64,000 nt of DNA from a virus (IMGVR_UViG_3300046734_000671:6438-70437); one strand, 5' to 3'; numbered from the stretch's first letter, positions 16,166 to 34,012 are shown. Notes: generated by a model not told the origin, from the letters alone. Program-made: numbers and translations.

Positions 16166-16173
16166 GAGAACAG

Positions 16174-16443
16174 ATGAAAATTATAAACGAAGACAATCCC
16201 ACGCTTGTTCTCGGGGGAGAAGAGCATGAGATTGAAAAACTTAATGAGACCTCAAAGTATTATATTGATCAGGTACAGGATCTTAATACACAAATGCTAC
16301 AAATTAAAGCAAAACTACACCAATGTGAAGTAGCTCGAGCAGGATTTGTAAGTCTATTGGCATCAGAGATTGAAGCACAAAATAAAGTGTTTAAGGACGG
16401 AGAAAATGAAGAAGGAACTGGAGACGAAGTCAGCAGCGACTGA
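16174..16443 (+). CDS. Small coiled-coil protein (DUF6447-like)
   Basis: AGGAG RBS; TLVLGGEEHEIEKL...QVQDL...EVARAGF pattern. Confidence 0.7.
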   Translation: MKIINEDNPTLVLGGEEHEIEKLNETSKYYIDQVQDLNTQMLQIKAKLHQCEVARAGFVSLLASEIEAQNKVFKDGENEEGTGDEVSSD

Positions 16444-16669
16444 TTCTATAGAGCTTCGTCCGGAGTCGGAGTGGGAAAATGAGGGAGAGGGAGCTACCGA
16501 GCCTGCTCCTGCTCCTGCTCCTGACTTATCAGATAGAGCTATCTCATATCTTGCTCAGATTCAAGATTTACAAGAACAATTAGAGCAAGAGAAGTTAAAA
16601 GTTGAACGACTTGAAATGGCAATACGTGGATTCACAATGGCACTTCAAGAAGAAATAAAGGGGCTCTAA
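16406..16669 (+). CDS. Small coiled-coil protein, paralogue of 16174-16443, with PAPAPAP linker
   Basis: GGAG before ATG 16406; LSD...YLAQIQDL...EMAIRGF aligns with the upstream gene. Confidence 0.65.
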   Translation: MKKELETKSAATDSIELRPESEWENEGEGATEPAPAPAPDLSDRAISYLAQIQDLQEQLEQEKLKVERLEMAIRGFTMALQEEIKGL

Positions 16670-16680
16670 GCCCCTTTTTT
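16657..16680. terminator. Probable bidirectional terminator at the convergence of the replication and structural arms
   Basis: AAAGGGGCT-CTA-AGCCCCTTTTTT between convergent stop codons. Confidence 0.85.
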
Positions 16681-16681
16681 A

Positions 16682-18025
16682 TTAGAAAGTTATACTACCG
16701 CTTGCAGTAAATTTATATACATTAAAAGATCCGTCAGTAGTTACAGTTGGAGATCCAGTGCTTGATGCAGCTGTCGAAGTAGTTCTAATAATAACAACTC
16801 CGGAACCTCCTGCGCCTCCAGTATTATTGTGCTCTGCACCAGCACCTCCACCTCCCCCAGTATTTGCTGTGCCCGGGTAACCGTTACCACTATTTGTTGA
16901 TGAGTTAACTCCAGCAGCACCACCGCCTTGGCCCCCATCAGCAGGAGATTGACTTGCGGGGTGGTGAGCACCAGCACCCCCACCAGCATAATAAGTAGCT
17001 GTGCCTGTTATGCTTGATTGTAGACCATCACCGCCATGTCCTGGCCCGTCAGTGTTTCCGGCTTCTCCAGCACCACCACCGCCACCACCAAAATCAGTAG
17101 CACTACCATTATCTACTCCGCCCGCAGCGCCGGCATTTCCTTGGCCCGATGTTCCTGTGCCCGCAGCGCCGCTATTTACAGCACCGCCTCCACCGGAACC
17201 TCCATTGCCTCCTGAACCGCCATTATATATTCCTCCTTTACCTCCTCCAATCGCTGTAAGAGTAGTAAATCCACTACCAGATACTACACTATTTCCACCG
17301 TCTGAAGCGGCCCCAGGACCTGTTGCAGAACCATTGCCTCCAGCCCCGACCGTAACTGTGTAGGTTGTTCCAATAGCAAGAGTACTAGTTCCAGTAAGAA
17401 GCCCTCCAGCACCACCTCCACCACCGGACTGGGTACCGCCTCCACCACCACCAGCTACAATTAAGTATGTAATATCTGGATTAAAAGAAAGACTAAAGTC
17501 AACAAAACGAGTAGCACTTGAAATCCCATCAGAAGCACTTAGTCTTGCTTTAAAACTTCCTGCGTGGCCAGCAGTTGTAGAGGGGTCAAAAGTAAACACT
17601 CCTGTACTTTGATTTATAGTTGTATCTGCAGTAAGTTGAGTGGGTCTTGCATTTGTAGCATTTGCATACGCTATAGCGTAAGTGATAGCAGTTCCTTCAG
17701 GATCTACTGCCTGCATTTGTACTGTACTAGTACTACCATCCTTATTTAAAGTATGAGTAGTAGGAGGCTCAGTATAAACAATCGGAGATTGCCCATCCCC
17801 TGCAGCTACACTAGCAAACTCCACTGCATTTGCAGCAGAATTTACTTTTAATGTTTTTCCGCCCTGCCCGCTAAAGGAAGAAGGAGTATCTGTTAATGCT
17901 GCAAAAGTAGTTGTTCCTGAAGCAGGAGCTGTCCACACACCTTTTGTAGAATTATAAGTATAAGTAGTCCCTCCAAACGTATGTGTGGCGCCGTTCGACG
18001 GACTATCTGGAAAGTTAGTTGCCAT
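16682..18025 (-). CDS. Modular fibre/adhesin: NFPxSP N-terminal module, cadherin/Ig-like domain, Gly-rich C-terminal domain
   Basis: MATNFPDSPSNGAT, AVDPEG...HAGSFKARLSASDG, YLIVAGGGGGG...GGSGVVIIR...SITF. Confidence 0.75.
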   Translation of the reverse strand: MATNFPDSPSNGATHTFGGTTYTYNSTKGVWTAPASGTTTFAALTDTPSSFSGQGGKTLKVNSAANAVEFASVAAGDGQSPIVYTEPPTTHTLNKDGSTSTVQMQAVDPEGTAITYAIAYANATNARPTQLTADTTINQSTGVFTFDPSTTAGHAGSFKARLSASDGISSATRFVDFSLSFNPDITYLIVAGGGGGGTQSGGGGGAGGLLTGTSTLAIGTTYTVTVGAGGNGSATGPGAASDGGNSVVSGSGFTTLTAIGGGKGGIYNGGSGGNGGSGGGGAVNSGAAGTGTSGQGNAGAAGGVDNGSATDFGGGGGGAGEAGNTDGPGHGGDGLQSSITGTATYYAGGGAGAHHPASQSPADGGQGGGAAGVNSSTNSGNGYPGTANTGGGGGAGAEHNNTGGAGGSGVVIIRTTSTAASSTGSPTVTTDGSFNVYKFTASGSITF

Positions 18026-18029
18026 TATT

Positions 18030-20693
18030 TTATCCTTGTAAAGCCGCTGTCGGCGCTGTGAAATTACTTGTGTATCTTGCTAGACCTTTTGTAATACGAA
18101 CATCGCTTTGATATCCATTAAAGACTTCCCCGCCTGTAGCACTTGCTCCAATCCTAAATAACTGAGAAGTATATGTTCTAGCACTTGTAGAGGAGCTGCC
18201 TGTTTGAGTGCCGTTCAAAAATAACTTGTGAGTGCCGCTTGCCCGCGTATAAGCCCAGTGATGCCAATTGTTTGCAGTGACTGCGCTTGACGCTCCTGTA
18301 ATCAGAAATCCGCCGCTGTATATATAGAGCGCTCCAGCAGTACTGACCGCTACAGACCATCCGCCAGCATCAGTAAGACTACTCAGTCGGCCATCAACTA
18401 CCGTGTATAATGCGGAGTTATTTGGTATCCAAAGCCAGCCCTCTATAGTAAAATCTTCAGTACCAAAATTTCCTATATCTTGATCATCCGCTTCGATATA
18501 ATCTCCAGTCCCATCAAAGTACATAGCAGAGCTTAAAAATTTATATTGAGTTGTAGATGATTTTGTATTTCCTACAAGTTTTACTTTCTTTGAACTTTGA
18601 GATTTGTCAATAATACCTGCATCTGTACTCTGTACAAGTAGTTTTGTATTTGTAATTGCTGTAAGTGGAGTAGTTGGAGGAGTAAAATTACTTGTATAAA
18701 CTGCTGTGCCTTTCACAAAACGAAGATCTGCTAAAGTTCCTGCAAGTGTGCCGTTAGAGTTATTCCATCGCATTATGTGTAAAGGATTTGTGCTATCAAA
18801 ACCAGCATCAGCAGCATTAGTAACAGTAGCATCTGACTTACCATTTAGATAAATAGCCCACGCATTTCCATTTCGGACTACTGCCCAATGAGTCCAAGTA
18901 TTAAGTGCAATATCAGTTGCAGCAGTAATTATATATGCGCTTGCTGGAGACGAATAAAATTGCAATTTGCCAGAATTGATTTGAACAATACTTGAAAAAT
19001 AAGTTTGTCCTACAAGAAAGTTTGCATTACCATATGCAGTGGGGTATACCCACCCTTCTATAGTAAAGTCAGAGGTTCCTAAATCAAAATCAGAGCTTGC
19101 TGCAACTGCCAAGTAATCTCCTGTACCATCAGAATGTAGAGAGCCTCCATGACTTGCTGCTGAATATTCTTGGGCATCGTATGGAGAAATGGGTTCTATA
19201 GTTGGGTCACCCGCCACAGTTATAGCGTGACCGTCTGTAGAGCCATCAGCTATATAAGGTAAATGACAAGTAAGTAACTTAGTATTTGTTACTGCTGTTA
19301 AAGGCTCTGTAGGTGCGGTAAACGCAGAAGTATATACAGCGGTGCCTTTTACAAATCTAACATCTCTTATATAGCCATTTAAATTATTACCGTATTGATG
19401 TGACCCAATTCTAATTCTATTATTAGCATAATTAGTACTATTTGACGCACTATATTTTAAAGCCCCATCAATATATAAATATATAGTAGAGGCATCCCTA
19501 ACAAGGGCTAAATGATACCACTTATTTAAATCAATAATATCGTGATTGGTACCACTTCCTACATTTCCTGTTAACCAATCTGAGTCGACTATACCAATAC
19601 TATCATTTGTGTGGTAATAAAAAATATTCATTACATTAGTTGAACCGCTCATAAGAGCAAGAAGAGTATACTGTGTATCTGTGTTAACTTTAAACCAGCA
19701 TTCTAAAGTAAACTGTCCAGTACCGACTTGAAATGCTGAAGTATCTGTAGGAGTTTCTAAATAGTCCCCGGTACCATCAAAATAAGTAGAATAGCCACCA
19801 TGTCGATAAGGACTAAATGTAGTTTGATGTGCATCTCCATTTGCTGTAATTGTATGGTTCGAAGTAGATTTATCGTCAAAAGAAGTATTTACTGCATTGT
19901 TTGCTCCTACTGAAGTGATAAGAGCTGTAGTATAATGACTATTTGGTACTGTAAATTGCAATGTAAATGAAGATGCTGCAGTTGCAATATTTACTCCATC
20001 ACTTGCACGAAATGTAAGCGAGAAAGTTCCTGCGTAAGCTGTATTTGTTGATGGTGTAATCGTCCATACATTTGTACTTGCTCCTGTACCTTGAGCCACC
20101 GTTGCTATATTCCCCGAAGTATCGCTAGCAATACTGTACGTAATTGGTATTCCTTCCGGATCTGTAGCAACAATAGTTACAGTAGTTGCTGTACCATCAA
20201 TTGCAAGATCATAGGTAGCATTTGCACCAGATATAGAAGGATTCGTATTTATAAGTGCAATTTTATACCATCCGCTACCATTGTAGAAGTATAAAGTATT
20301 TGTTGCAGTTACAAATGCTTGATCTCCTGCAGCAGGAGATGACAGGGCCAGAAGCGCAGTTACATTTGCTACAACTGTGGCACTTCCGTCTGCTCCAGCC
20401 GCTCCAGCCGCTCCAGCGGATCCTTGTTGTCCAACAACTTCTACCCATTGATTGGAAGAGCCATCAGCATAGTATACAAACATACCTCCATCATCAGTAT
20501 CATACCATAAATCGCCGTCTGAAGGACTAGAAGGAGCACTATCGCTTGTACTTACAGATGCACCTCCACCGCTACCACTGGAACCTGCAGAACTTGTCCA
20601 GTATGCTTTTGTAGAATTGTAAGTATAAGTAATTCCATTTATAGTCACCGTATCTGCATTACTTGGACTATCTGGAAAATTATATAAAGCCAT
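18030..20693 (-). CDS. Modular fibre/adhesin with three LamG/ConA-like lectin domains
   Basis: Three FDGTGDY..FTxExW..WxHxAxVR..LYxxG..DxRxxKG units; N-terminal NFPDSPSN, PSSPSDGDLW and cadherin-like modules. Confidence 0.8.
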   Translation of the reverse strand: MALYNFPDSPSNADTVTINGITYTYNSTKAYWTSSAGSSGSGGGASVSTSDSAPSSPSDGDLWYDTDDGGMFVYYADGSSNQWVEVVGQQGSAGAAGAAGADGSATVVANVTALLALSSPAAGDQAFVTATNTLYFYNGSGWYKIALINTNPSISGANATYDLAIDGTATTVTIVATDPEGIPITYSIASDTSGNIATVAQGTGASTNVWTITPSTNTAYAGTFSLTFRASDGVNIATAASSFTLQFTVPNSHYTTALITSVGANNAVNTSFDDKSTSNHTITANGDAHQTTFSPYRHGGYSTYFDGTGDYLETPTDTSAFQVGTGQFTLECWFKVNTDTQYTLLALMSGSTNVMNIFYYHTNDSIGIVDSDWLTGNVGSGTNHDIIDLNKWYHLALVRDASTIYLYIDGALKYSASNSTNYANNRIRIGSHQYGNNLNGYIRDVRFVKGTAVYTSAFTAPTEPLTAVTNTKLLTCHLPYIADGSTDGHAITVAGDPTIEPISPYDAQEYSAASHGGSLHSDGTGDYLAVAASSDFDLGTSDFTIEGWVYPTAYGNANFLVGQTYFSSIVQINSGKLQFYSSPASAYIITAATDIALNTWTHWAVVRNGNAWAIYLNGKSDATVTNAADAGFDSTNPLHIMRWNNSNGTLAGTLADLRFVKGTAVYTSNFTPPTTPLTAITNTKLLVQSTDAGIIDKSQSSKKVKLVGNTKSSTTQYKFLSSAMYFDGTGDYIEADDQDIGNFGTEDFTIEGWLWIPNNSALYTVVDGRLSSLTDAGGWSVAVSTAGALYIYSGGFLITGASSAVTANNWHHWAYTRASGTHKLFLNGTQTGSSSTSARTYTSQLFRIGASATGGEVFNGYQSDVRITKGLARYTSNFTAPTAALQG

Positions 20694-20696
20694 TGT

Positions 20697-23348
20697 TTAC
20701 CCCTTTAAAGCCGCTGTCGGCGCTGTGAAATTACTTGTGTATCTTGCTAGACCTTTGGTTATACGAACATCGCTTTGGTATCCTGTAAAGAATTCAGATG
20801 CATCGTGTTTAGCTGCTATTGTAAAATTATTATCTGTGTAGTTTCGGACGGTTGTATAAGTAGTTCCTGTTTGAGTTCCATTTAAAAATACTTTTTGATT
20901 TGTGCCGCTTCTTGTAAAAGCCCAGTGGTACCATGTATTTGAAGAAATAGCACTTCCTTTTGCTCCGATAAATGCTCCGGAATAAACATAAAAGTCTCCT
21001 GCACTTATTGCCATAACCCAGCCAGTTGTAGACCCTCCACTAGTTCGTGTTTCTGCGATAGTAATATAATTTGAAGGAGATGCTGTTAGATAAAACCATC
21101 CTTCTGCTGTAAAATCTGCACTACCAAAATTTCCTATATCTTGATCATCCGCTTCGATATAATCTCCAGTACCATCAAAATACATAGAGCTTGAAAGAAA
21201 CTTTGTTTGAGTTGTAGACGACTTTGTATTTCCTAAAAGTTTAACAAATCGGGGAGTTTGAGCTTTGTCAATAATACCTGCATCTGTACTCTGCACAAGT
21301 AGTTTTGTATTTGTAACTGCTGTGAGAGGCGAAGTAGTAGGAGTGAAATTAGAAGTATAAACTGCAGTGCCATTTACTACACGAACATCTGATATATTTC
21401 CGGTAAATGCTCGTGCTGCTATTGCAGGGTACTGTCCAATTTGTATAAATGTGGGTTGAGTTACAGTTCCTGTTTTTGTAACTGTTGTTGCATCTGCTAC
21501 ACCATTTATATATAATTTACAGTTTCCTGAGCTACTTCCATTTCTAACTAAGGCTAAATGAGTCCATTGATTTAAAGGTAAAGACCCGGTCGCATCAGTA
21601 TAAGTCATTCCTACATTAAAATGTAATTTTCCATTTGACCTAACAAGAATATTCCATCCTGTGCTTTGTCCATCGTGAGAAAAGGCCAATATCCCAGAAT
21701 AATCATTTGTATGTGCAGTACAATAAACCCAACACTCTGCAGTAAAATCCCCTGTGAATGTAAAGTCAGATCCTCCAGTAATTTCTATACTATCTCCTGT
21801 GCCATCACAATTTAACGAGCCTCCATGACTTGCTGCTGCATATTCTATTTCATCAAAAGGAGCCCAAGGGGCTATAGTTGGATCACCACTAACAGTTAGT
21901 GCATGTCCTGTTTCTCCTTCATCTTTTAAATACGGCTTATTAAATATAAGTAGTTTTGTGTTTGTAACTGCGGTAAGAGTTTCTGTAGGAGCAGTAAAAT
22001 TACTAGTATATAAACAAGTTCCTTTTATGATTCTAAAGTCTTTTAAATTAGCGGGGCCTAAAGTTTCTCCTGCACCCCAGCCAGATCTACCAATTCTTGC
22101 TCCCACCGTATTTCCGTACGTAAAGTCAAAAGCATTTGTATCTGTATTAGTAGCTACAAGAGTTCCTCCTTGAAACAATCTACACACATTACTACTATCT
22201 CGTGTCAGTGCACAGTGTGTCCAAGTATTTAATGGAATCAATGTAGCAGTTCCAGTAGCAGAAGTGCCAGTTTGATTGGCATGCATTTGAGGATTTCCTG
22301 CACCAACTGCTCTAGTTGCACAAAGAACTCCTGCCATTGCAGGACCTCCAGTAATCCCTGTATCATTACCAATAGAAATATAAGGTGCAGTGCTATATCC
22401 ACTACTATTTGGAGCTATCACTCTTTGAACAGTTCTTGCATAAGAATTTGGAATATAAACCCAAAACTCAATAGTAAATTCGCCATCTAAATCAAAATCT
22501 GCATGATTTGGAGTATCTATCCAATCGCCTGTGCCATCGAACTCCATTGAGTAGCCACCATGTCGATAAGGACTGAATGTAGTTTGATGAGCATCTCCAT
22601 TTGCTGTGATTGTATGATTGCTGCTTGATTTATCATCGAATGTAGTATTTACAGCATTATTTGCACCTACAGATGTTATAAGAGCTGTAGTATATTTTTG
22701 ATTTACAACTTTAAATTGTAGAGTAAATGATGCTGCTGAAGAAGCAATATTTACACCATCAGAAGCACGGAAAGTAAGTGAGAAAGTTCCTGCGTGTGCC
22801 GTATTTGTTGAAGGAGTAATTGTGAATACGTTTGTGCTTGAACCTGTTCCTTGTGCTACTGTCGCAGTATTTCCAGAAGTATCAGAAACAATACTATATG
22901 TAATTGGCAGTCCTTCGGGATCTGTAGCAGTTATTGTTACAGTCGTAGCAGTACCATCAATCGCTAAAGCATAACTTGAACTTACACCAGAAATAGTAGG
23001 ATTGTTATTAATTAATGCAATATTGTACCATCCAGTGCCTGTCCAAATATATAAACGATTTGTAGCAGTTACATACGCCATATCGCCAGCAGTGCCGCTT
23101 GTAGGCAATGCTGCAATGTTTGCGTATACTGCGGTTCTTGCTGCGGATTCGCCAGCACCTATAAGAGTTCTAACCTCTGCTCCGGTAATACCAGATACTA
23201 GACTAGGAGTAGAGCCATCTGTTGTAATTGCTGGATTTCCCGTTGCAGTAGGATTCCACACTCCCGCAGTGCCGTCATATGTAAATGTCTGGCCTGCTGC
23301 TGTATGAGTTGCCCCGTTTGATGGGCTATTTGGAAAATTTATTGCCAT
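20697..23348 (-). CDS. Modular fibre/adhesin with three LamG/ConA-like domains, paralogue of 18030-20693
   Basis: Same architecture, with near-identical DNA blocks. Confidence 0.8.
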   Translation of the reverse strand: MAINFPNSPSNGATHTAAGQTFTYDGTAGVWNPTATGNPAITTDGSTPSLVSGITGAEVRTLIGAGESAARTAVYANIAALPTSGTAGDMAYVTATNRLYIWTGTGWYNIALINNNPTISGVSSSYALAIDGTATTVTITATDPEGLPITYSIVSDTSGNTATVAQGTGSSTNVFTITPSTNTAHAGTFSLTFRASDGVNIASSAASFTLQFKVVNQKYTTALITSVGANNAVNTTFDDKSSSNHTITANGDAHQTTFSPYRHGGYSMEFDGTGDWIDTPNHADFDLDGEFTIEFWVYIPNSYARTVQRVIAPNSSGYSTAPYISIGNDTGITGGPAMAGVLCATRAVGAGNPQMHANQTGTSATGTATLIPLNTWTHCALTRDSSNVCRLFQGGTLVATNTDTNAFDFTYGNTVGARIGRSGWGAGETLGPANLKDFRIIKGTCLYTSNFTAPTETLTAVTNTKLLIFNKPYLKDEGETGHALTVSGDPTIAPWAPFDEIEYAAASHGGSLNCDGTGDSIEITGGSDFTFTGDFTAECWVYCTAHTNDYSGILAFSHDGQSTGWNILVRSNGKLHFNVGMTYTDATGSLPLNQWTHLALVRNGSSSGNCKLYINGVADATTVTKTGTVTQPTFIQIGQYPAIAARAFTGNISDVRVVNGTAVYTSNFTPTTSPLTAVTNTKLLVQSTDAGIIDKAQTPRFVKLLGNTKSSTTQTKFLSSSMYFDGTGDYIEADDQDIGNFGSADFTAEGWFYLTASPSNYITIAETRTSGGSTTGWVMAISAGDFYVYSGAFIGAKGSAISSNTWYHWAFTRSGTNQKVFLNGTQTGTTYTTVRNYTDNNFTIAAKHDASEFFTGYQSDVRITKGLARYTSNFTAPTAALKG

Positions 23349-23358
23349 TCTTTACTCC

Positions 23359-24981: not shown

Positions 24982-24991
24982 TCTTTACTCC

Positions 24992-27832
24992 TTAAAAAGT
25001 TATGCTACCAGTGCCTGCTGTAAATGTATAAACATGCCATCCGGATCTGCCGCTAGTATCTACACTGTAAGTTCCTGATACAGAAGATGCTGCTTGTTGT
25101 GCTGCAATAATTACTACACCAGAACCACCGGCTTGACCAGCAACACTACTACCATTACCACCTCCGCCTCCGCCAGTATTTGCGGTGCCTGCTGATGCAG
25201 AAGCTCCGCCATTACCACCTCCGCCTGCGCCACCATTAGTGTACGTTTGGGAATTCCAAGTAGCACCACCTCCGCCCCCTGCGCGAGTTACAGAAGTACC
25301 AGTTATAGAGGAAGCTAAACCAGCACCTCCTGAACCTGCCGCTGTAGTGCCTGTACCGCCATCTGTACCAGCAGCGCCTGCACCACCACCACCACCTGAA
25401 CCTCTAGCACCGCCATTTGTAGACGCACCGCCCGCATTCCCTTGTCCAGAAGTACCTGCACCACCAGTACCCCCATAACGACCACCACCACCTGAGCCAC
25501 CTACTAATCCATTTCCAGCGTACGAAGCACTCGCAGGGCCTGTACCGGCTCCACCACCTCCACCTACAGCTGTTATACTTCCAAATACAGAGTCGCTTCC
25601 ATTCGTTCCATTATTATTATCAGGACTTGTACTGCCTGCGCCTCCCGCCCCTACAGTAATTGAGTAGGCCGTGCCGGGCTGTAACGTAAATCCTGTAGCA
25701 GTACGGTAACCACCAGCTCCACCACCACCTCCAGCAGCTGATCCGGCTCCACTACCCCCGCCACCGCCGATAACTAAGTATTCTACTAATACGGTGAAAG
25801 CTAAACTAAAGTCCACTAGACGAGTTGTAGTTCTTGCTCCATCAGAGGCGCTTAAGCGAGCTCGAAAGTTGCCTGCATGAGCTGAATTACTACTAGGAGT
25901 AAAAGTGTATACTCCTGTACTTTGATTAATAGAAGGAGCGGAAGCAAGCTGAGAAGGTAAAGCATTATTTGCTGTTTTATATGCAATACCATAATTAATA
26001 GCAAATCCTTCGGGATCTTGAGCTGTCATTGTAACTGTGCTAGTACTTCCTGAGTTTGAAAGTGCTTGTGTACTTGTAGGGGGTTCAGTAGTAATTACAG
26101 GACTTTCGTCATTTCCAGAGGCTACTACTTCCCAAGATGTGCCATTATATAAGTATAAAGTATTCGTATCATTTGCATAAGCCAAATCAGCGGCAGTTGG
26201 ACTTCCTGGAAAACCTGCAACATTAGCATAACGAGTTATTGCAGCACTAGACCCATCAGCACCAGCAGCACCAGCAGCACCTGTAGCTCCTGTAGCTCCT
26301 GTAGCTCCTGTAGCTCCTGTTTTACCTACAATTTCTACCCATTGAGAAGAATTTGCATCAGTATAGTATACAAACAAACCACCAGCATTTGTATTGTACC
26401 ATAAGTCTCCTGCACTGGGACTACTTGGTGCAGCATCTGACGTAGTTACAGATGCTCCCCCACCTCCTCCAGACTGTGCCACCCAGTCATAGTCACTGCC
26501 GTTCCAAGATAATACCTCTCCAGAGGACGCTGTGCTTCTATTTAAATGAGTATCTACAGATGCATCATTATAGCTTCCACCTGCTGTAACTGCTGCCTGA
26601 ACAAATGCAGTTGTTGCAATCTGTGTAGTATTTGTGCCACTAGAGGCTGTTGGAGCTGCTGGCGTACCGGTAAGTGTTGGACTTGCTAAAGGTGCTTTTG
26701 CAGCTAAACTATTTGTAACTGTTGTAGAAAAACTTGCATCATCATTTAGTGCTGCTGCAAGTTCATTTAATGTATCTAAAGTTGCAGGAGCAGAATCTAC
26801 AAGAGCAGAAACTTGAGTATCTACATAACTTTTGTTTGAGAGTTCTATCCAGTTTCCGCCATGTGCAAAGTATGCCGCTCCAGTTGCGTGAACGTGTGCA
26901 AACATACCATGATAAGTTGTAGCGCTAGGTAAATCAGAAAGCGCTGAATACATATTTGCGAATAAAACTTTACCTGTTGTAATAAAATCATTGCTACCAA
27001 TATCAATATCTGCATTTTTATGTGCTATAGTAGTAGGTACCCCCGTTAAAGAGCTATAAGCGCCATTAAATAAAGCAGTATTTCCTGCAAGTGCAGTTGT
27101 AGCCGAAGTTCCTAATGTAAGTGCATCAGTAATACCATACCCTGCTATAGTAGTAGGCTTACCTGTAAGAGCACTAAATGCTCCGCTAAATAAAGCGGTG
27201 TTGCCAGCAAGTGCAGTTGTGGCCGAAGTTCCTAATGTGAGAGCATCAGTAATACCATACCCTGCTATAGTTGTTGGTTTGCTAGAAAGAGAAGCAAAAA
27301 CTCCATCAAATGCATCTGTAATTCCGTATCCTGATATAGTTGTTGGCTTACCGCTGAGATCACTAAATGCGCCACTAAAGGCGGCAGTATTTCCAATCTG
27401 TAAAGTATTATTTGTACCACCACTAAGAGTTACTTGATTATTTCCACTACCAATTTTTAATTGACCTACAATTATATTACTACTATCCGCGGAGATAGTT
27501 TGGTTGCCAAGATTTATACTTGTACCACTTAAGTGTAGATCTTTAAATTTATTTGTACTTGAGCCCAAGTCTCGAGTTTCATTTCCATCTGGAATTAAAT
27601 CTCCTGCAATAGAGCTTATATCTACATTACTTATTCCAGCTCCAATAAGAGTTCTCATTTCTGCTGCAGTAATACCAGTACCAAGACTAGGAACAGTTCC
27701 ATTGCTAAGTATAGCAGGACTTAAACCAGTGCCCGTTTTCCAAGCATTGTCTGCTGAAATATAAGTATAGACAACACCGTTTACTGTAACGGTATCTCCA
27801 TTACTCGGACTATTTGGAAAATTATATGCCAT
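24992..27832 (-). CDS. Long modular fibre: KPTT..GYGITDA repeats, LDTLNELAAAL block, collagen GXY stretch, cadherin-like domain, Gly-rich domain
   Basis: Typical tail-fibre shaft repeats plus shared modules. Confidence 0.8.
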   Translation of the reverse strand: MAYNFPNSPSNGDTVTVNGVVYTYISADNAWKTGTGLSPAILSNGTVPSLGTGITAAEMRTLIGAGISNVDISSIAGDLIPDGNETRDLGSSTNKFKDLHLSGTSINLGNQTISADSSNIIVGQLKIGSGNNQVTLSGGTNNTLQIGNTAAFSGAFSDLSGKPTTISGYGITDAFDGVFASLSSKPTTIAGYGITDALTLGTSATTALAGNTALFSGAFSALTGKPTTIAGYGITDALTLGTSATTALAGNTALFNGAYSSLTGVPTTIAHKNADIDIGSNDFITTGKVLFANMYSALSDLPSATTYHGMFAHVHATGAAYFAHGGNWIELSNKSYVDTQVSALVDSAPATLDTLNELAAALNDDASFSTTVTNSLAAKAPLASPTLTGTPAAPTASSGTNTTQIATTAFVQAAVTAGGSYNDASVDTHLNRSTASSGEVLSWNGSDYDWVAQSGGGGGASVTTSDAAPSSPSAGDLWYNTNAGGLFVYYTDANSSQWVEIVGKTGATGATGATGATGAAGAAGADGSSAAITRYANVAGFPGSPTAADLAYANDTNTLYLYNGTSWEVVASGNDESPVITTEPPTSTQALSNSGSTSTVTMTAQDPEGFAINYGIAYKTANNALPSQLASAPSINQSTGVYTFTPSSNSAHAGNFRARLSASDGARTTTRLVDFSLAFTVLVEYLVIGGGGGSGAGSAAGGGGGAGGYRTATGFTLQPGTAYSITVGAGGAGSTSPDNNNGTNGSDSVFGSITAVGGGGGAGTGPASASYAGNGLVGGSGGGGRYGGTGGAGTSGQGNAGGASTNGGARGSGGGGGAGAAGTDGGTGTTAAGSGGAGLASSITGTSVTRAGGGGGATWNSQTYTNGGAGGGGNGGASASAGTANTGGGGGGNGSSVAGQAGGSGVVIIAAQQAASSVSGTYSVDTSGRSGWHVYTFTAGTGSITF
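26259..26320 (-). repeat. Collagen-like 9-bp repeats (GAT)4(GAA)2
   Basis: CCTGTAGCT x4 and CCAGCAGCA x2. Confidence 0.85.
27070..27280 (-). repeat. 120-bp-period tandem duplication (40 aa) in the fibre shaft
   Basis: GTGCAGTTGTxGCCGAAGTTCCTAATGT at 27091 and 27211. Confidence 0.85.
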
Positions 27833-27846
27833 TGGTTACTCCTACT

Positions 27847-29289
27847 TTAAAACGTAATGCTGCCATTGCCTGTGAAAGTATATACATAATATCCAGACCT
27901 ACTACTAGTACTTAGACTATATGTACCTGTAATTGTATTTGCGGCCTGTTGAGCAGCAATAATTACAATTCCATTGTTTCCTGCGGATGAAACCAAACTA
28001 CCGTTATTCCAGATTCCCCCCTTGCCTCCATTACCTACTACACTAGCGCCTCCTCCTGTTCCATAAGAGCCCATACTCACATCATAGCCTCCTCCAGCAC
28101 CGCCTCCTGCATAGTATGTTGCAACTCCAGTAATTGAAGATTGTTTTGCAGCTCCACCATTACCACCTAAAGCAGCGGTGCCATCTGTACCTGCTCCGCC
28201 GGCTCCGCCGCCCCCTCCAGCACCTTCATTCGAATAATCATCTCCACCGTTATTACCAAAACCTTTTCCACTATATGAAGCCTGTAATCCTAACCCTGGG
28301 CCGTCTGAAGCTCGACCAGCGCCGCCGCCGGAGCCTCCATTTAAAGCAGTTGATAAATCACTGCCAGTAAAGTTACCTACACCACCGCCACCACCGCCTC
28401 CCGTAGCAACATAAATATCAGACCCTCCAGTAGCAAAAGTACTATTACCACCTCTTGACCCAAGTGTATCCTGTGCTGTTGCAACTGCTCCTCCTGTTCC
28501 TACTGTAATATTATATGTAGTGCCCAAAGAAAATGCATATGAAGCATCTTCAACATATCCACCACCACCACCAGCACCGCCAGCAGAATGATTACCTCCT
28601 CCTCCGCCTGCAACCAGTAAAATTCCTGCAGTAACATCAAAGGTTAAACCAAAATCTACAAATCGAGTTGTAGTATTTGCTCCATCAGATGCACTTAATC
28701 TAGCTTTAAAGCTTCCAGCATGTGCTTGGTTATTACTTGCTGTAAAAGTATAAACTCCAGTACTTTGATTAATAGTAGTATCCGCCGATAATTGAGTAGG
28801 CCGTACATTACTTGCAGTTTTATATGCAATTCCGTATTGAATATCAAAACCTTCTGGATCTTGAGCTACCATTGTAACTGTGCTAGTACTGCCGCCGGTT
28901 AGTGTTTGCTGAGAAGTCGGAGGCTCTGTTAAAATTACTGGAGATTCATCTCCGCTATCAATTCTATCCCATGAAGAGCCCTTTCGCACATACAAAGCAT
29001 CTGTATCGTTTGCGTATGCTAAGTCTCCTTCGCTAGGGCTACCAGGAAATGCAGCAAAGTTTGCGTATACAGTTACTCCTGCACCTGACCCGCTACCAGA
29101 CCCGCTACCAGAAGGATTTGTTTGCACCCACTGATTTGAAGAACCATCTTGATAATATACAAAAGTTTTTAATACGCTAGGATCAAACCATAAATCACCC
29201 GCACTAGGACTAGTAGGTGCTGTTTCTGATACAGTTACAGATGCTCCACCACTACCTGAAACATATCTTATACTTGAATAAGTTGCCAT
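27847..29289 (-). CDS. Modular fibre/adhesin: PSAGDLW module, cadherin-like domain, Gly-rich domain
   Basis: Shared modules; unique N-terminus MATYSSIRY. Confidence 0.75.
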   Translation of the reverse strand: MATYSSIRYVSGSGGASVTVSETAPTSPSAGDLWFDPSVLKTFVYYQDGSSNQWVQTNPSGSGSGSGSGAGVTVYANFAAFPGSPSEGDLAYANDTDALYVRKGSSWDRIDSGDESPVILTEPPTSQQTLTGGSTSTVTMVAQDPEGFDIQYGIAYKTASNVRPTQLSADTTINQSTGVYTFTASNNQAHAGSFKARLSASDGANTTTRFVDFGLTFDVTAGILLVAGGGGGNHSAGGAGGGGGYVEDASYAFSLGTTYNITVGTGGAVATAQDTLGSRGGNSTFATGGSDIYVATGGGGGGGVGNFTGSDLSTALNGGSGGGAGRASDGPGLGLQASYSGKGFGNNGGDDYSNEGAGGGGGAGGAGTDGTAALGGNGGAAKQSSITGVATYYAGGGAGGGYDVSMGSYGTGGGASVVGNGGKGGIWNNGSLVSSAGNNGIVIIAAQQAANTITGTYSLSTSSRSGYYVYTFTGNGSITF

Positions 29290-32156
29290 TATCGCTCCGT
29301 TAATAACCAGCCTTGGGCTGCGTTATAGTATACCAATCCAAATGCAGCTCTAGCAGTAGATACTGTTAAGTCCTGCGTTGCTCCTTGAATTTTATGTCCG
29401 TTTCTTGCTATTGTAATACTATTTGTTCCGGCATTTCCTGTGCCATCTATAATTCTTACCTCGTCGCCTAATGTTGCACTTGTAGGTAAGGTTATAGTAA
29501 CTGCACTAGAAGTATCTACTATTAGATTATTTCCTGCCACTGCTGTATAAGAACTAGTTTTTTCTGTCCAGGTTGCAGCAGCTCCACTATTTGATACCCA
29601 ATCATAGTCACTACCGTTCCAGCTTAGTACTTCTCCAGTTGCCGCAGTACTTTTATTTAAGTGAGTATCTACATTTGCATTATTATACCCTCCTGCTGAA
29701 GATACTTCTTGTTGTACAAATGCTGTAGTTGCAAGCTGAGTAGTATTTGTTCCACTGCTTGCTGTAGGAGCAACTGGTGTTCCTGAAAATGTAGGAGAGT
29801 TTGCCGTTGCTGCATCTGTTATACCATAACCAGAAAGTGTTGTAGGTTTTCCTGATAAACTACTAAAAGCTCCATCAAAACCACTTTGGTCTATAGAACT
29901 TGGATTAGTTTGTACCCATTGATTAGAGCTGCCATCAGCATAATATACATATAACACAAGAGCATCATCATCAAACCATAAATCCCCTGCAGAAGGACTG
30001 CTAGGAGCGCTACCAGATACAGATACATTTGCTCCAGCACTAAATCCTGATATTGCTGATTGAACAAAAGCTGTTGTTGCAAACTGAGTTGTGTTTGTAC
30101 CGCTAGTAGCTGTGGGTCCTGAAGGAGTTCCTGTAAAAGTCGGACTAGCTAAAGATGCAGCATCTGTAATACCGTATCCTGTTAGTGTAGTGGGCTTACC
30201 TGTAAGGGAGCTAAATGTGCCACTAAATACTTCTGATTGATTTGCTAGCCGTACCCAATTACCTCCATGAGCAAAATAAGCAGCACCTGTAGCATGTACA
30301 TGAGCAAACATACCATGATATGTAGTAGCACTAGGAAGATTTGCAACCTGTGAAAACATATTTGCAAAATAAACTTTGCCTGTAGTAATAAAATCATTAC
30401 TGCCAATATCTGCATCTGCACCTGTAGTAAGTGCATCAGTAATACCATACCCTGCTACAGTAGTGGGTTTACCTGTAAGATTTGCAAAATTTACGCTTGC
30501 AGGGGGAGTATACGAAAATACACCCGTAGAATTATTATAGCTTAAAGCTCCTGTTCCGGAAGATGAGTTTTGTGTAACACTTAAATCAGTTAATTCAATT
30601 TTATTATTTACAAAAGCAGTTGTTGCAATTTGAGTACTATTTGTACCTGCTGTTGCTGTAGGGGCTGTTGGTGTTCCTGTGAGTGCTGGAGATGTTAGAG
30701 GTGCTTTTAAAGAAAGATTATTAGTAACTGTTGAAGCAAAACTAGCATCATCATTTATTGCTGCGGCTAATTCATTTAGAGTATCGAGAGCTCCGGGAGC
30801 AGAGTCAATTATTGCATCTATTTTTGCTTGTACATGAGACTCTTGTATTTGCCACTCAGGAACACCAGAAACAGTCAAAGTAATATGAGAAGTAGCAGAA
30901 TTAGAAGTTCCTGTAGAAGTATAAGTAAAACTTTTTACTTTTTTATCAAAAGCATTACCACTTGAACGAGTAAAAGAACTTTGGTTCATTACTTGAGTAG
31001 TATTATCGTGGTAAGTAACTACTCCAATTGTTGGGACATTTACTCCTGTACTACTAAATGCTTCTAAAAATAAAGGAGGGTCTATATCTACAGTGCCCGT
31101 TGGCAGTCCTGTCGAAAGAACTAGTCTGGTATCTGAAGCTCCTTGAGCAGGAATTGTAATACTACTAGAAGAATTTGAAACAAATCTACTGTCTAAGGGA
31201 GCTATTGTTGTTCCTGCTACCTGTTTGTATAATGCCCCGGAATTAGTATCTATCCAAATTTCATCAAATGCGGAGAAAGTAGTAGGAGCATTATCTTGAA
31301 AATATATTTTTTGAGACGTTCCTACTGCTTCTTGTACTTTACTAGTTACAAATGCTGTAGTTGCAAGCTGAGTAGTATTTGTTGCAAGTGCTGGAGTAGG
31401 CGCTGCAGCAACTCCTGTAAAACTAGGGGAAGCAATAGGAGCAGCATCAGTAATACCGTATCCTGCTAGTGTAGTCGGCTTACCTGTTAAAGCAGCAAAA
31501 GCACCACTAAAAGCATCCGTAATCCCATATCCTGCAACAGTATTAGGTTTATTTGTTACTTGTGCGAAAGATACGCTTGTTAGTGCATCGGTGATGCCGT
31601 ATCCAGATACTGTTGTAGGTTTATTTGTTAAATCAGCAAAAACACCACTAAAAGCATCCGTAATTCCATATCCTGCAATAGTAGTTGGTTTGCCAGTAAG
31701 AGCACTAAAGATTCCGTTAAAAGCATCCGTAATGCCATACCCAGATATAGTAGTAGGCTTACCTGTTAAAGCAATGAAAGAACCATTAAAAGCATCCGTA
31801 ATCCCATACCCAGATAAAGTACTAGGTTTATTTGTTACCTGAGCAAAAGATACAGTCGTTAAAGCATCTGTAATACCATAGCCTGCTAGAGTAGTGGGTT
31901 TACCTGTTAAATCTCCAAAGGAACCACTAAATGCATCAGTAATACCATAGCCAGCTATGGTTGTTGGTCTACTAAGTATATCTGAAAAAGAGGGAGTATA
32001 AATTACATACCCTAAATTATTCCAAGTAGTTGCTCCATCACCTATTTTAAACTTATCAGTATTAGTTTCATACCCTAGCTCACCTTGGCTCAAAGTAGGG
32101 TTAGTACTAGTCCAGTCTGCTGAAGTGTCCCGTCTTATTTGTATTCGTGCTACCAT
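29289..32156 (-). CDS. Tail fibre with Mtd/hyaluronidase-type N-terminal domain, 11 GYGITDA repeats and C-terminal T4 gp9/gp10-like domain
   Basis: RIQIRRDT..DW...NPTL..GELGYETNTDKFKIGDG..W; TITLPTSATLGDEVRIID...TNSITIARNG...LVY...GW. Confidence 0.8.
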   Translation of the reverse strand: MVARIQIRRDTSADWTSTNPTLSQGELGYETNTDKFKIGDGATTWNNLGYVIYTPSFSDILSRPTTIAGYGITDAFSGSFGDLTGKPTTLAGYGITDALTTVSFAQVTNKPSTLSGYGITDAFNGSFIALTGKPTTISGYGITDAFNGIFSALTGKPTTIAGYGITDAFSGVFADLTNKPTTVSGYGITDALTSVSFAQVTNKPNTVAGYGITDAFSGAFAALTGKPTTLAGYGITDAAPIASPSFTGVAAAPTPALATNTTQLATTAFVTSKVQEAVGTSQKIYFQDNAPTTFSAFDEIWIDTNSGALYKQVAGTTIAPLDSRFVSNSSSSITIPAQGASDTRLVLSTGLPTGTVDIDPPLFLEAFSSTGVNVPTIGVVTYHDNTTQVMNQSSFTRSSGNAFDKKVKSFTYTSTGTSNSATSHITLTVSGVPEWQIQESHVQAKIDAIIDSAPGALDTLNELAAAINDDASFASTVTNNLSLKAPLTSPALTGTPTAPTATAGTNSTQIATTAFVNNKIELTDLSVTQNSSSGTGALSYNNSTGVFSYTPPASVNFANLTGKPTTVAGYGITDALTTGADADIGSNDFITTGKVYFANMFSQVANLPSATTYHGMFAHVHATGAAYFAHGGNWVRLANQSEVFSGTFSSLTGKPTTLTGYGITDAASLASPTFTGTPSGPTATSGTNTTQFATTAFVQSAISGFSAGANVSVSGSAPSSPSAGDLWFDDDALVLYVYYADGSSNQWVQTNPSSIDQSGFDGAFSSLSGKPTTLSGYGITDAATANSPTFSGTPVAPTASSGTNTTQLATTAFVQQEVSSAGGYNNANVDTHLNKSTAATGEVLSWNGSDYDWVSNSGAAATWTEKTSSYTAVAGNNLIVDTSSAVTITLPTSATLGDEVRIIDGTGNAGTNSITIARNGHKIQGATQDLTVSTARAAFGLVYYNAAQGWLLTER
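31440..31975 (-). repeat. Eight tandem ~66-bp coding repeats (KPTTxxGYGITDA)
   Basis: Repeated GCATCxGTAATxCCxTA on the + strand. Confidence 0.9.
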
Positions 32157-34012
32157 TATGCAGAGCCCCCATCAAGAAATATTATCACATCACTAGATAC
32201 GCTTGTAGCAGTACCCCCATCAACTACAAAATTTACAGTACCTCCAGTACCGCCAACTCCTGATTGATTTACGTTACGAAAAGCGTTAGTAGAACTATCA
32301 TATGCGATTACTTGATTTTGCTGTGGACTAGTTATTGTTACATCTGTTAGTCCGCCTAAAGTTTGAGAACCTGCTTGCTGTTTAACAAACGCAGTTGTTG
32401 CTACTGTAGTATCATTACTTGTTGTAGCAGGGGTAGGTGCAGTGGGGGCCCCTGTAAAAGCAGGGTTAGACAAAGGAGCCTTCAATACCAAACTTTGAGT
32501 TATAGAACTTGCAAAATTTTCATTATCATTAAGTGCAGCTGCTAGCTCATTTAAAGTATCTAAAGTTCCTGGAGCTCCATCTACTAAAGTATTTATTTGA
32601 TTATTAACAAAAGTTTGAGTAGCAAAAGTGCTCAAGTCAGGAAATGTCATAGAGAAAACGCCACTGAGACTATTATAGCTTAGAACGCCATCTCCTGAGG
32701 GGGTTGAGTTAATAACAGATAAATCTGATCTATCTATTTTTAACTCGTTTAATACATAAGTATCTATAGAAGAGCTACTAAATAAAAATATTTCAGTAGT
32801 AGAAGTTGCTACACCTATTTTTATGGTTGTACTACTTTTTGTTTGAGTAACTCCACCAGAATTATTTAAGTATACAAGACTGCCAGACGTAAGATTTGAA
32901 AAACCATTAATAAGTCCGTGTATAGTTACTGGAACACTGTTAGGAGCAGTTCCTCCTGCCGCAGCAAATCCTACAAAACCTTCAGTTCCGTTTGTAGCAT
33001 TTACAATTCCTACTGTTCCATTTGAAAATAATTTTACGGGGTCCAAGAAAGAAACTTGCCCAGATACTTGGAAATTTTTTCTTAAAACCTCTGTAGCATT
33101 TTCAGCAAATCTTTCCTCTATAAGAGTGTTAGCAAAGTTTGCAGGAATTTCATTATCTTCTGTTCCTACGGAACTATTTAAGGGTAAAAGAACTCCGCCC
33201 CCAGAAGTTGAAGATAAAGAAGCTTCTCCAATTGTGATTGTACTACCAGAAAATACTGCATCTTTTACAAATAATTTATCAAATGCTTGATTTTGGCTTC
33301 CAAGATTTGCTGGGCGAACACTAATTGTATTGCCATTATCGTCCGTAAAAGTGCTGCTTATATTCCCTACAGGAAGAATATCACCTTTAATATGTAAATT
33401 ATTCCAAGCGTTGGAACTACTTCCTAAATTTTTTGTGAGCCCAGTGCGCGGAGCTAAGTCTACACTCAGACTTTGTAGTTCTGTTTGTACCCAGTTACTA
33501 TGTATAAAATACTGACTATTATCCCCTAAAGGGATAGATACGGCACCGCTTAACTGTATAGGACCTAAAAAAGTACCCCCCGATATTGACATTTTACTAG
33601 CAACTGCACTATTTGCTGTAGTGCCAGCAGCATTTGCAGCTCCTTGAGCATTTCCTATCTTTACATCTAAGTCGTGTGTAAAATATTTTAGTTCTTTTTC
33701 AAGACCTACAAGACCTTTCTTAAGAGAAGTAAAATTTGTATCAATTTCAGGTATTGTAAGCAGTTCTTCGTTCGGTTTATGAGGAACTGTTGTAGTTTGA
33801 TTATTTTCATGCTCGTACGACTGGTCAGTAACTTTTGTAACAACAGTTACATTTTTACTAACTTGTGCCTCCCACTCGCCCGTACCAAATGCCCCGCCCT
33901 GTTTATCATAGATATACTGAATTCCATTCCGGAGGACCGGAATGGAGTATTGATCAGCAGGATCTGCGTATGCAGGTACCGGCAATAAGGGAGATGTACG
34001 AGAATGAGCCAT
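32156..34012 (-). CDS. Proximal tail fibre / virion structural protein
   Basis: LTIPEIDTNF, LGS.S.AWNNLH repeats, APGTLDTLNELAAAL, LGGLTDVTITSP, terminal DGG-ending motifs. Confidence 0.7.
   Translation of the reverse strand: MAHSRTSPLLPVPAYADPADQYSIPVLRNGIQYIYDKQGGAFGTGEWEAQVSKNVTVVTKVTDQSYEHENNQTTTVPHKPNEELLTIPEIDTNFTSLKKGLVGLEKELKYFTHDLDVKIGNAQGAANAAGTTANSAVASKMSISGGTFLGPIQLSGAVSIPLGDNSQYFIHSNWVQTELQSLSVDLAPRTGLTKNLGSSSNAWNNLHIKGDILPVGNISSTFTDDNGNTISVRPANLGSQNQAFDKLFVKDAVFSGSTITIGEASLSSTSGGGVLLPLNSSVGTEDNEIPANFANTLIEERFAENATEVLRKNFQVSGQVSFLDPVKLFSNGTVGIVNATNGTEGFVGFAAAGGTAPNSVPVTIHGLINGFSNLTSGSLVYLNNSGGVTQTKSSTTIKIGVATSTTEIFLFSSSSIDTYVLNELKIDRSDLSVINSTPSGDGVLSYNSLSGVFSMTFPDLSTFATQTFVNNQINTLVDGAPGTLDTLNELAAALNDNENFASSITQSLVLKAPLSNPAFTGAPTAPTPATTSNDTTVATTAFVKQQAGSQTLGGLTDVTITSPQQNQVIAYDSSTNAFRNVNQSGVGGTGGTVNFVVDGGTATSVSSDVIIFLDGGSA

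Follow-up and report, generated by a model that had tools for sequence, protein, structure and literature searches.

A modular eight-gene tail-fibre array with a putative peptide-socket joint in an uncultured marine T5-like siphophage

We analysed a stretch of 64,000 nucleotides (hereafter the window) comprising bases 6438–70437 of the 70,437-base IMG/VR virus contig IMGVR_UViG_3300046734_000671, for which completeness is estimated at 73 %, and within it an array of eight consecutive open reading frames (ORFs), g1–g8, at positions 16682–34012. All eight lie on the minus strand and are separated by at most 14 nt or overlap by 1 nt (g8/g7 and g7/g6). Their products are described here in terms of shared modules, lettered A–H, of which H denotes a group of short blocks. 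At the upstream end, g8 (32156–34012, 618 aa) has a divergent A-like head, an LDTLNELAAA block and a conserved C-terminus ending in DGGSA, and it matches PHROG tail-fibre families with expectation values (E) down to 1e-21. It is followed by g7 (29289–32156, 955 aa), which runs from an Mtd_N head through 11 copies of GYGITDA, the LDTLNELAAA and YHGMFAHVH blocks, one B module and VDTHLN to a terminal domain that we term the socket domain, and by g6 (27847–29289, 480 aa), which lacks an A head and has the order plug-B-C-D-E. The remaining five genes all begin with an A head: g5 (24992–27832, 946 aa) continues with G, three GYGITDA copies, YHGMFAHVH, LDTLNELAAA, VDTHLN, B, a collagen-like GXY run, C, D and E; g4 (23359–24981, 540 aa) is A-B-B-D-E; g3 (20697–23348, 883 aa) is A-G-C-D-F; g2 (18030–20693, 887 aa) is A-B-C-D-F; and g1 (16682–18025, 447 aa), the last gene of the array, is A-D-E. 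The A heads themselves occupy 27731–27832 in g5, 24880–24981 in g4, 23247–23348 in g3, 20589–20693 in g2 and 17924–18025 in g1, again on the minus strand.

The original prediction, made by a model from the nucleotide sequence, had described this locus as an array of eight adhesin or fibre genes built from shuffled modules, and its inventory of parts held throughout. Module A stands at the N-terminus of precisely the five genes whose starts it had named (g1–g5), B is found in five genes (g2, g4, g5, g6 and g7, twice in g4), C in four (g2, g3, g5 and g6, all detected by a hidden Markov model (HMM), the strict regular expression finding only g2 and g3), the D module (DPEG...ASDG) in six (g1–g6) and G in two (g3 and g5). 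The E tip corresponds to the Pfam family Gly_rich_2 (PF21722) in g1, g4, g5 and g6, with E-values from 2e-22 to 5.5e-10 and scores of 80.7 bits for g1 (E 2.1e-22), 79.3 for g5, 48.5 for g6 (E 1.5e-12) and 40.1 for g4 against a gathering score of 24.3. The F tip consists of three Laminin_G_3 (PF13385) stretches each in g2 (165.6 bits, E 1.1e-48) and g3 (165.7 bits, E 1e-48), where the gathering score is 27.6. Mtd_N (PF18454) was recognized at residues 5–43 of g7 (52.7 bits, E 3.8e-14; gathering score 26.3), and the same N-terminus also weakly matched the N-termini of phage hyaluronidases. Among the H blocks of the longer fibres, GYGITDA occurs in g7 and g5, LDTLNELAAA in g5, g7 and g8, and both YHGMFAHVH and VDTHLN in g5 and g7. 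All-versus-all BLASTP linked g2 with g3 (E 0; 51 % identity over 925 columns), g1 with g4 (8e-160), g5 with g6 (8e-155) and g5 with g7 (2e-51), and collagen-like GXY runs often stand directly behind B. The statement that all eight proteins reuse the same blocks needs correcting for g8, which has only blocks of the H type (LDTLNELAAA-type) in common with the others. A weak Pfam match of g2 to Toxin_R_bind_N (17.8 bits, below the cut-off of 23.8) was taken as a general lectin-fold likeness and set aside. Taken together, the module and family matches strongly support the assignment of all eight products as fibre proteins with real shared modules.

The phage itself can be placed from the genes around the array. 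On the plus strand, the left part of the window holds a T5-type replication block with PHROG matches to a D5-like regulator, DnaB, primase, Pol I, helicase, SbcCD, flap nuclease and ribonucleotide reductase. On the minus strand, the right part holds a siphophage structural block (portal, protease/capsid, major tail protein and a 1555-aa tape measure protein), in which the tail module encodes lambda-like M, L, K and I and a 2557-aa J-like protein ahead of the fibre genes. This adjoining of a T5-type replication block and a siphophage structural block is what we looked for in a T5-like phage, and the DNA polymerase is 44–45 % identical to those of T5-like Vibrio, Klebsiella and Aeromonas phages, including Vibrio phage pVp-1 and Klebsiella phage Sugarland. 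The T5-like phages of this comparison belong to the Demerecviridae in the wide sense. Among the public runs listed, 20 of marine or seawater origin, from 15 studies, contain the stretch. By these matches the source is a distant, uncultured marine T5-like siphophage, and the original description of the products as tail-fibre or receptor-binding proteins of such a phage agrees with the PHROG tail-fibre families and module matches found. No described isolate with an array of this kind was found in record searches with the array DNA, g9 (the gene directly upstream of g8) and g1: the whole array had no nucleotide match among 50,697 phage records, from which entries close to the window may be missing, the g9 protein had no homologue in the phage records and the sole match of g1 was one uncultured marine virus. 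Neither did the literature searched, which left subscription journals and supplementary files outside its reach, yield a description of such an array.

As repeated modules with 70–86 % nucleotide identity could mislead assemblers, and as many joints with sides of less than 30 letters appeared, and parts stayed uncovered, when contigs of other runs were mapped onto the stretch, we considered that fibre genes of several phages might have been wrongly joined in the metagenomic assembly, or that the proteins might lie outside the virion. Contigs from an independent seawater run (X2) span the g7/g6 junction over 1433 bases with 0 differences and the g6/g5 junction with a 1139-base contig, of which 1138 bases aligned with 1 difference, and a contig of run X6 spans g5/g4. 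Since independent contigs bridge the first two of these borders with 0–1 differences, mis-assembly of the array is unlikely. The same gene order recurs in independent contigs of other samples, the genes are tightly packed in the tail module with 1-nt overlaps at g8/g7 and g7/g6, and the products match PHROG tail-fibre families, all of which leaves this combined explanation with a very low probability. As a separate observation, about 54 % of the words sampled from 23000–32000 recur, in pieces at 0–2 differences, among contigs of two oligo-dT RNA-Seq libraries of a study on a marine metagenome; DNA carry-over is possible there, and transcription is not claimed.

The feature of the array that bears most directly on how its products might be joined lies at the g7/g6 border. 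The socket domain forms the extreme C-terminus of g7 (residues 852–955; 29292–29603, minus strand) and is a putative XD1/gp9-like beta-sandwich: residues 852–953 matched residues 71–175 of the N-terminal part of tailspike TSP4 of phage CBA120 (TSP4-N; PDB 7REJ, 7RFO and 7RFV) with a phmmer E of 2.2e-8, which identifies XD1 at the sequence level. XD1 (TSP4 residues 80–178) is a nine-stranded beta-sandwich whose fold recurs in the middle domain of T4 gp9; its role is described as not fully understood (PMC8825819). The alignment of this domain from seven carriers has many invariant columns. Directly downstream, the first ten residues of g6 (29260–29289, minus strand) form a putative plug with the motif M-x-x-Y-S-x-I/V-R/K; M1, Y4, S5, I7 and R8 are invariant in seven tip proteins, with a Gly-rich linker behind them. 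The socket domain is present in one copy each in the genomes G000 and G003 and in none in G001 and G002 (G and L numbers are our labels for genomes and loci).

We surveyed 12 junctions of this kind from 11 distinct contigs (16 table rows, three contigs being doubled). Four of the rows fell outside the strict regular expression and were assigned by inspection, namely those of L016 and L017 (both MYAH), L018 (with its start seven residues into the ORF) and L023 (MTTYSNIR). Seven junctions have a carrier ending in ...GLVYYNxxQGWLLTER, a 1-nt overlap and then a protein starting M-[AT]-[TN]-Y-S-[STN]-I-R, and five have a carrier ending in ...LYLVFTFN, 11 nt and then a 416–422-aa protein starting MYA[KH]L. 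The C-terminal type of the carrier matched the N-terminal type of the next protein in 12 of 12 junctions, with no mixed cases. The socket domain is also portable: G003 has it at the end of a 595-aa carrier with an A head, again followed by a plug-headed tip, here of 439 aa (a split counterpart of g5). Three further cases, in each of which socket and plug motif again occur together, fit the pattern: L073 combines an XD1-like end with a tip starting MANNRYSQVK; G007 combines the socket with two MANYSD[VI]K tips; and in L061 the partner, starting MTNYSSIRY, lies 5 kb downstream behind an inserted A-headed cassette. Moreover, from g9 to residue 855 of g7 the window runs colinear with G001 at 93.6 % identity, and the two then diverge through the terminal domain and the next gene, which implies that the socket domain and its partner were exchanged together.

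A second head/socket cassette was observed alongside the first. Its carriers end in ...GENLYLVFTFN (or ...TFTYS or ...QFTYKKV) and are followed by a 387–422-aa protein with MYA[KH]L near its start, at L009:13911–18073 (the locus of G001), L025, L022, L016 and L017 and also at L111; the MYA[KH]L protein matched no Pfam or PHROG family. In the window, the XD1-like domain and g6 stand in the place that the ...LYLVFTFN/MYA[KH]L cassette takes in relatives.

We then modelled the joint as a complex of three copies of g7 residues 815–955 and three copies of g6 residues 1–66, using our own alignments. The model scored 0.81 (0.80, 0.81 and 0.81 in individual runs) versus 0.01 for the best of three controls; contacts agreed among runs to at least 97 %, and the predicted local distance difference test (pLDDT) value was at least 68 for the partner and 88 for the carrier. 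The predicted interface places residues 1–10 of g6 on residues 914–955 of g7 and involves no other g6 residues. The score mark, reached by 58 of 80 solved complexes and by 2 of 110 mismatched pairs, is only roughly applicable to a model of 3+3 copies built from our own alignments. Thus, the capture of the g6 N-terminal peptide as a plug by the terminal XD1/gp9-like domain of g7 is supported, short of being shown, by the sequence match to XD1, the pairing and joint exchange of the two parts and the predicted complex. Such a joint would be end-to-end, and branching through it is unproven. If the model is right, service as a terminal peptide socket would be a previously undescribed use of an XD1-like domain.

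The pieces on either side of this joint probably form one serial fibre. Residues 48–578 of g8 align to the first ~540 residues of single proteins in L023 (1563 aa, E 7e-79) and G007 (1581 aa, E 1e-68), and the rest of these proteins matches g7 through to the socket domain; in G002 the g8 homologue begins with a match to the A HMM. Because g8 and g7 are fused in G007 and L023, and because the genes overlap by 1 nt at g8/g7 and g7/g6, we read g8, g7 and g6 as probably the proximal, middle and distal-tip pieces of a single fibre. In g5, the VDTHLN block runs straight into B-C-D-E, and this protein looks like a covalent counterpart of g7 plus g6 that is provided with an A head.

How the five A-headed proteins are attached is a separate matter. 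The A module measures 32–34 aa, and an alignment of the heads within one genome (A6) has 13 invariant columns of 35. In 204 of 205 HMM matches its start lies among the first 45 residues, the single exception being a weak partial match. At least seven subtypes were distinguished, which persist across genomes while the body behind them changes: the subtype of the LamG-tipped g3 heads Gly-rich-tipped proteins in G001–G003, the g1 head is 100 % identical to that of the last-position gene in G002 and G003, and the mean identity of A heads within a genome is 0.51 compared with 0.66–1.0 for the best cross-genome match. The heads of g1 and g4 are 79 % identical and fall in the same subtype cluster. 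Furthermore, the same C-D-E or C-D-F bodies occur on plug-headed and on A-headed proteins. As A is N-terminal, keeps its subtypes and shares bodies with the plug-headed proteins, we read it as an alternative N-terminal head, probably the one by which g1–g5 attach.

The original prediction had cast A and B as plug and socket units by which the fibres assemble into a tree. A good deal of the layout suits such a scheme, in which A heads would plug into the B (and C) knobs of other fibres and the eight proteins would branch on each lateral fibre: A is strictly N-terminal whereas B and C lie within the chain, an A-less, B-bearing protein stands ahead of the A-headed genes in most loci whose upstream sequence is visible, A-headed genes in contigs that lack g9 fit a partner on another fibre more easily than a g9-specific one, and the numbers of B and A modules are close in five arrays (6/5 in the window, or 6 A if the A-like head of g8 is counted; 7/7 in G001; 7/6 in G002, or 7 A with g8; 7/6 in G003; and 7/7 in G007). 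However, profile comparison showed B and C to be homologous (hhalign probability 94.8 %, E 5e-8) and gave A a borderline similarity to C (48 %, E 1.8e-4; A with B, 13 %). In an AlphaFold2 (AF2) model of g4 built from 79 sequences (mean pLDDT 85.6), A is a three-stranded meander of short strands (residues 14–17, 20–25 and 30–32) and each B has four strands, the last three in A's order behind a PxSPxxG-type lead, a likeness that is one of strand layout. B was also matched in 31 phage records, of which 26 are from Synechococcus phages, 4 from Prochlorococcus phages and 1 from a marine virus, at up to six places per record; every match there begins at query residue 48 or later and none includes A. 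G004 has 8 B modules and 4 A heads, so that near-equality of counts is not general, and near-equal counts would be expected anyway at about one B per fibre. A and B subtypes showed no covariation: the A heads divide into seven subtypes or more, yet B hardly differs between g6 and its first copy in g4. These results suggest that B and C are homologous, small beta-meander shaft knobs and not dedicated sockets, and they make an A-into-B tree quite improbable. The plug-and-socket idea survives in another form, as a non-covalent joint between the g7 XD1-like domain and the M-x-x-Y-S-x-I/V-R/K peptide; its A-into-B version is unsupported.

Two other partners for A were considered. The terminal domain of g7, as one of several A sockets, was ruled out by its presence once or never per genome, and g9, as a universal partner, was weakened by its absence from four of five other A-bearing contigs, which are 30–86 % complete.

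The gene g9 (34018–36066, minus strand, 682 aa) lies directly upstream of the fibre genes and matches no Pfam or PHROG family; g10 (36079–38946, minus strand, 955 aa), downstream of the J-like gene, has no Pfam match and a weak match to phrog_13290 (unknown function; E 2e-4). Family profiles of both found no match in the PDB, an AF2 model of g9 from 16 homologues was poor (pLDDT 39), and the matches of g9 in the ESM Atlas were unnamed viral clusters only. Both are conserved and syntenic in 17 relatives and are candidate tail-tip or baseplate parts. The two termini of g9 are highly conserved around a variable middle, and the middle of g10 is variable (678–1010 aa in relatives) and carries repeated K/E-rich units with a KPL motif. 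A 115-aa ORF directly downstream of the J-like gene (39126–39473) has no Pfam or PHROG match and, judged by position, could encode a collar or decoration protein.

Such neighbours could provide separate sites, and it is possible, if somewhat doubtful, that each A-headed fibre attaches through its own A subtype to its own tail-tip or collar site on g9, g10, the J-like protein or the 115-aa ORF product, giving six kinds of fibre side by side. The persistence of A subtypes across genomes, the divergent A-like N-terminus of g8 as the first fibre protein and the conserved position of g9 and g10 directly upstream would all agree with this arrangement, for which the lateral fibre of phage DT57C, held by N-terminal strands in a collar ring, offers a parallel (PMC10713586). 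Set against it are the absence of any detected LtfC/p132 homologue and of family matches for the 115-aa ORF, the patchy distribution of g9 given above, the lack of any model or covariation linking A to a tail protein and the fused g8–g7 protein of G007, which has no A-like N-terminus. Alternatively, similar A heads might compete for a few equivalent sites, each particle then bearing some of the five fibres at random and polyvalence being a property of the population, not of the particle. The 13 invariant columns among the heads of one genome and the close kinship of the g1 and g4 heads are in keeping with competition of this sort, and in G007, where two plug-headed tips face one socket type, competing or mixed tips are already implied. 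However, A subtypes that stay distinct and keep their gene positions from genome to genome fit separate sites better, and even though simple synteny would explain them too, we consider such random filling unlikely.

The distal ends were described originally as at least six different tips, and six are present: four Gly-rich (g1, g4, g5 and g6) and two LamG (g2 and g3). D has a weak cadherin likeness (profile versus PDB 7tni_A, E 0.008), and the only PDB matches of the g4 model in Foldseek were of the Ig/cadherin type. With pLDDT above 90 over most of D and E, the model indicates confident globular domains. In BFVD, the g4 model matched 189 viral predicted structures at E ≤ 0.001, cyanophage proteins among them, the best being a Gly-rich protein of Pelagibacter phage HTVC025P (E 8.8e-29). 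LamG domains, which have a concanavalin-like fold, are lectin-like. In Pam3 gp24 and S16 gp38, the distal part, proposed to bind the receptor, is formed by Gly-rich domains with GGGGxGG motifs (PMC9608196). By family and C-terminal position, E and F are putative receptor binders.

Comparison with relatives indicates that these parts are recombined. A g9 scan of IMG/VR recovered 17 loci with the order g10-g9-g8-g7, and in the whole arrays compared, those of G001 (97 % complete), G002, G003 and G007 (100 % complete), there are 6–7 A-headed genes each, with the same modules in other combinations. Breaks in nucleotide comparisons fall at module borders (g7:855; g5:679, D/E; g4:151–158, B/D; g3:70, G/C; and g1:75), which strongly supports recombination at module borders as the source of fibre diversity. 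In G001–G003, nrdB (window 15200–16165) is 97–99 % identical to that of the window and g9 98, 40 and 57 % identical. By these identities the host-recognition block is evolving or recombining far faster than the adjoining replication block, with strong mosaicism. The parts also extend beyond close relatives. In IMG/VR, the A alignment picked out 369 stretches, of which 251 were confirmed, and the 75 loci kept contain 32 distinct A-headed architectures, usually with several genes in tandem. More than 3493 metagenomic homologues of g4 were found at E ≤ 1e-5, some with other tip families (PF26696, PF00754 and PF02018). On contigs of 129–136 kb from much larger phages (G004 and G005; loci L061–L063 and L110), a 2521–2611-aa fibre with seven B knobs ends in an XD1-like socket; these contigs also have A-headed fibres and a plug-headed LamG tip and are without g9. 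The kit is thus common to phage groups that do not have g9.

Overall, we consider it probable (roughly 70 %) that an uncultured marine T5-like siphophage recognizes its hosts with the products of this locus, which would comprise one long three-piece fibre and five further fibres that draw on one exchangeable kit. On this reading, g8, g7 and g6 would form a serial fibre in which the C-terminal domain of g7 holds the g6 peptide, and A would anchor g1–g5 on the tail tip or on another fibre. B and C would be shaft knobs, often followed by collagen-like GXY runs. The distal parts are, on strong support, globular domains of each chain, a cadherin-like Ig domain (D) followed by a Gly-rich domain (E) or three LamG domains (F). 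Gly-rich and LamG tips may then bind different host surface structures, and the virion, or the virion population, would recognize several receptors or host strains. A number of points weigh against this account. Socket and plug genes are not always adjacent, as in L061, and G007 has two plug tips per one socket type; the score of the complex is a model confidence obtained outside the calibration set-up; and a docking site for A was not located, the socket domain occurring only once per genome and g9 being absent from four of five other, incomplete A-bearing contigs. Module E found no PDB match, either by Foldseek with the g4 model or by sequence profile, and the role of E and F as receptor binders is read from family and C-terminal position. 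Trimeric fibres are assumed by analogy with other fibres, and the presence of the proteins in the particle, singly or all at once, is predicted from the genes.

The locus is of a known kind, in which several receptor-binding proteins are joined by adaptor domains; unusual are the number of tips for a siphophage and the wide marine distribution. In function it comes closest to the branched spike complexes of the Ackermannviridae and G7C, the branched fibre of DT57C and the serial T4 long fibre with its separate adhesin. The contrast originally drawn with T5, which has a single L-shaped fibre gene, needs qualifying, since the T5-like phage DT57C has a two-protein branched fibre, LtfA/LtfB (PMC4728585, PMC10713586). 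DT57C and DT571/2, whose branched fibre (LtfA/LtfB) has the collar LtfC, are like the window phage in being T5-like siphophages in which the tail module ends with two or more lateral-fibre genes and one protein is carried by another (PMC4728585, PMC10713586), but they differ in having two fibre proteins as opposed to eight, and the tail tip of the window is of the lambda-like M/L/K/I/J type. No fibre N-terminus in the window matched the pb1/LtfA N-terminus (~80 aa) by PHROG or Pfam, only module B touching phrog_3304, and the small ORFs beside the J-like gene had no matches that would identify an LtfC collar.

The tailspike systems of the Ackermannviridae (CBA120 TSP1–4) and of G7C (gp66/gp63.1) resemble the array in their adjacent receptor-binding protein genes, dedicated N-terminal adaptors and domains of the XD series (T4 gp9/gp10). 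In CBA120 and G7C, however, docking is through the XD2/XD3 jellyrolls and XD1 is described as a spacer (PMC8825819), whereas in the window the XD1-like domain is the carrier's C-terminus and the predicted socket. XD2/XD3 were not found on the carriers in searches at the sequence level, in which PDB queries with g5, g7 and profiles of g4, g9 and g10 (g1–g3, g6 and g8 were not among them) matched only TSP4 XD1 and nothing in residues 180–335, and Pfam was negative for g1–g10. Those phages are, moreover, myophages and podophages with enzymatic spikes and two to four tips, whereas the window belongs to a siphophage with fibres and six or more tips.

The T4 long tail fibre is composed of gp34-gp35-gp36-gp37, with a gp38-type adhesin tip in T2 and S16. 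The array shares with these phages a serial multi-protein fibre and a separate distal receptor-binding piece, which in S16 is the Gly-rich gp38 (PMC9608196), but has no sequence relation to gp34–37, its joint would be a peptide on a gp9-like sandwich, and it has five additional fibres. Pam3 gp24 and the Gly-rich proteins of pelagiphages and cyanophages likewise have a C-terminal Gly-rich distal tip with GGGGxGG-type motifs; Pam3, in contrast, relies on one type of fibre, whose baseplate anchor is alpha-helical (PMC9608196), and the likeness of E to gp24 is one of motif, without a PDB fold match. The Klebsiella phages RaK2 and phiK64-1 also have many receptor-binding proteins per virion (PMC10253068), but they are jumbo myophages with enzymatic spikes and are likened here by description only.

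Several further features of the window were recorded. Residues ~545–890 of the J-like central tail-fibre protein (39576–47249, 2557 aa) match J families, a weak fn3/Ig_J match lies near residues 1115–1186, and the ~1400 C-terminal residues, to which no family was assigned, have a weak BLAST likeness to g4, g5 and g7. The N-terminal ~300 residues of a 682-aa ORF at 60194–62242 match PHROGs for head maturation protease and major head protein, and the ORF may encode a protease-capsid or a scaffold-capsid fusion. At 16174–16669, between nrdB and the array end, the plus strand has two small ORFs of 89 and 99 aa whose products are rich in E, K and Q. Guanine plus cytosine content is 0.43–0.48 in parts of 16001–30000 versus about 0.35–0.40 elsewhere, with its highest 2-kb bin in the Gly-rich part of g5, and the rise over the array is provisionally attributed to Gly-rich coding.

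Which of the abundant ocean bacteria fall victim to a phage depends on its host range, a property that can hardly be read from the sequence of uncultured marine phages. The locus points to a widespread, rule-based build, in which a head, shaft knobs, an Ig domain and a Gly-rich or LamG tip are combined and at least two head/socket pairs travel as cassettes, and the 97–99 % identity of nrdB against 40–98 % for g9 pinpoints the array as the fast-evolving host-recognition island of its lineage. A bolder extension, which we hold to be improbable at present, is a connector code common to marine phages of several morphotypes, in which a few N-terminal heads (A subtypes, M-x-x-Y-S-x-I/V-R/K and MYAKL) have cognate sockets, namely the XD1-like terminal domain, the ...LYLVFTFN terminal domain and, for A, perhaps the B/C knobs of other fibres. 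Were it true, any body and tip could be plugged in anywhere by one recombination event, siphophage fibres could be truly branched with six to eight tips, and the tip set would be re-dealt between close relatives. If the XD1-like domain is truly a peptide socket, this would give a function to a fold whose role is described as unclear in T4 gp9/gp10 and CBA120 TSP4 (PMC8825819), and the socket and plug would offer a simple handle by which to predict matching fibre pieces and to engineer tips in model phages.

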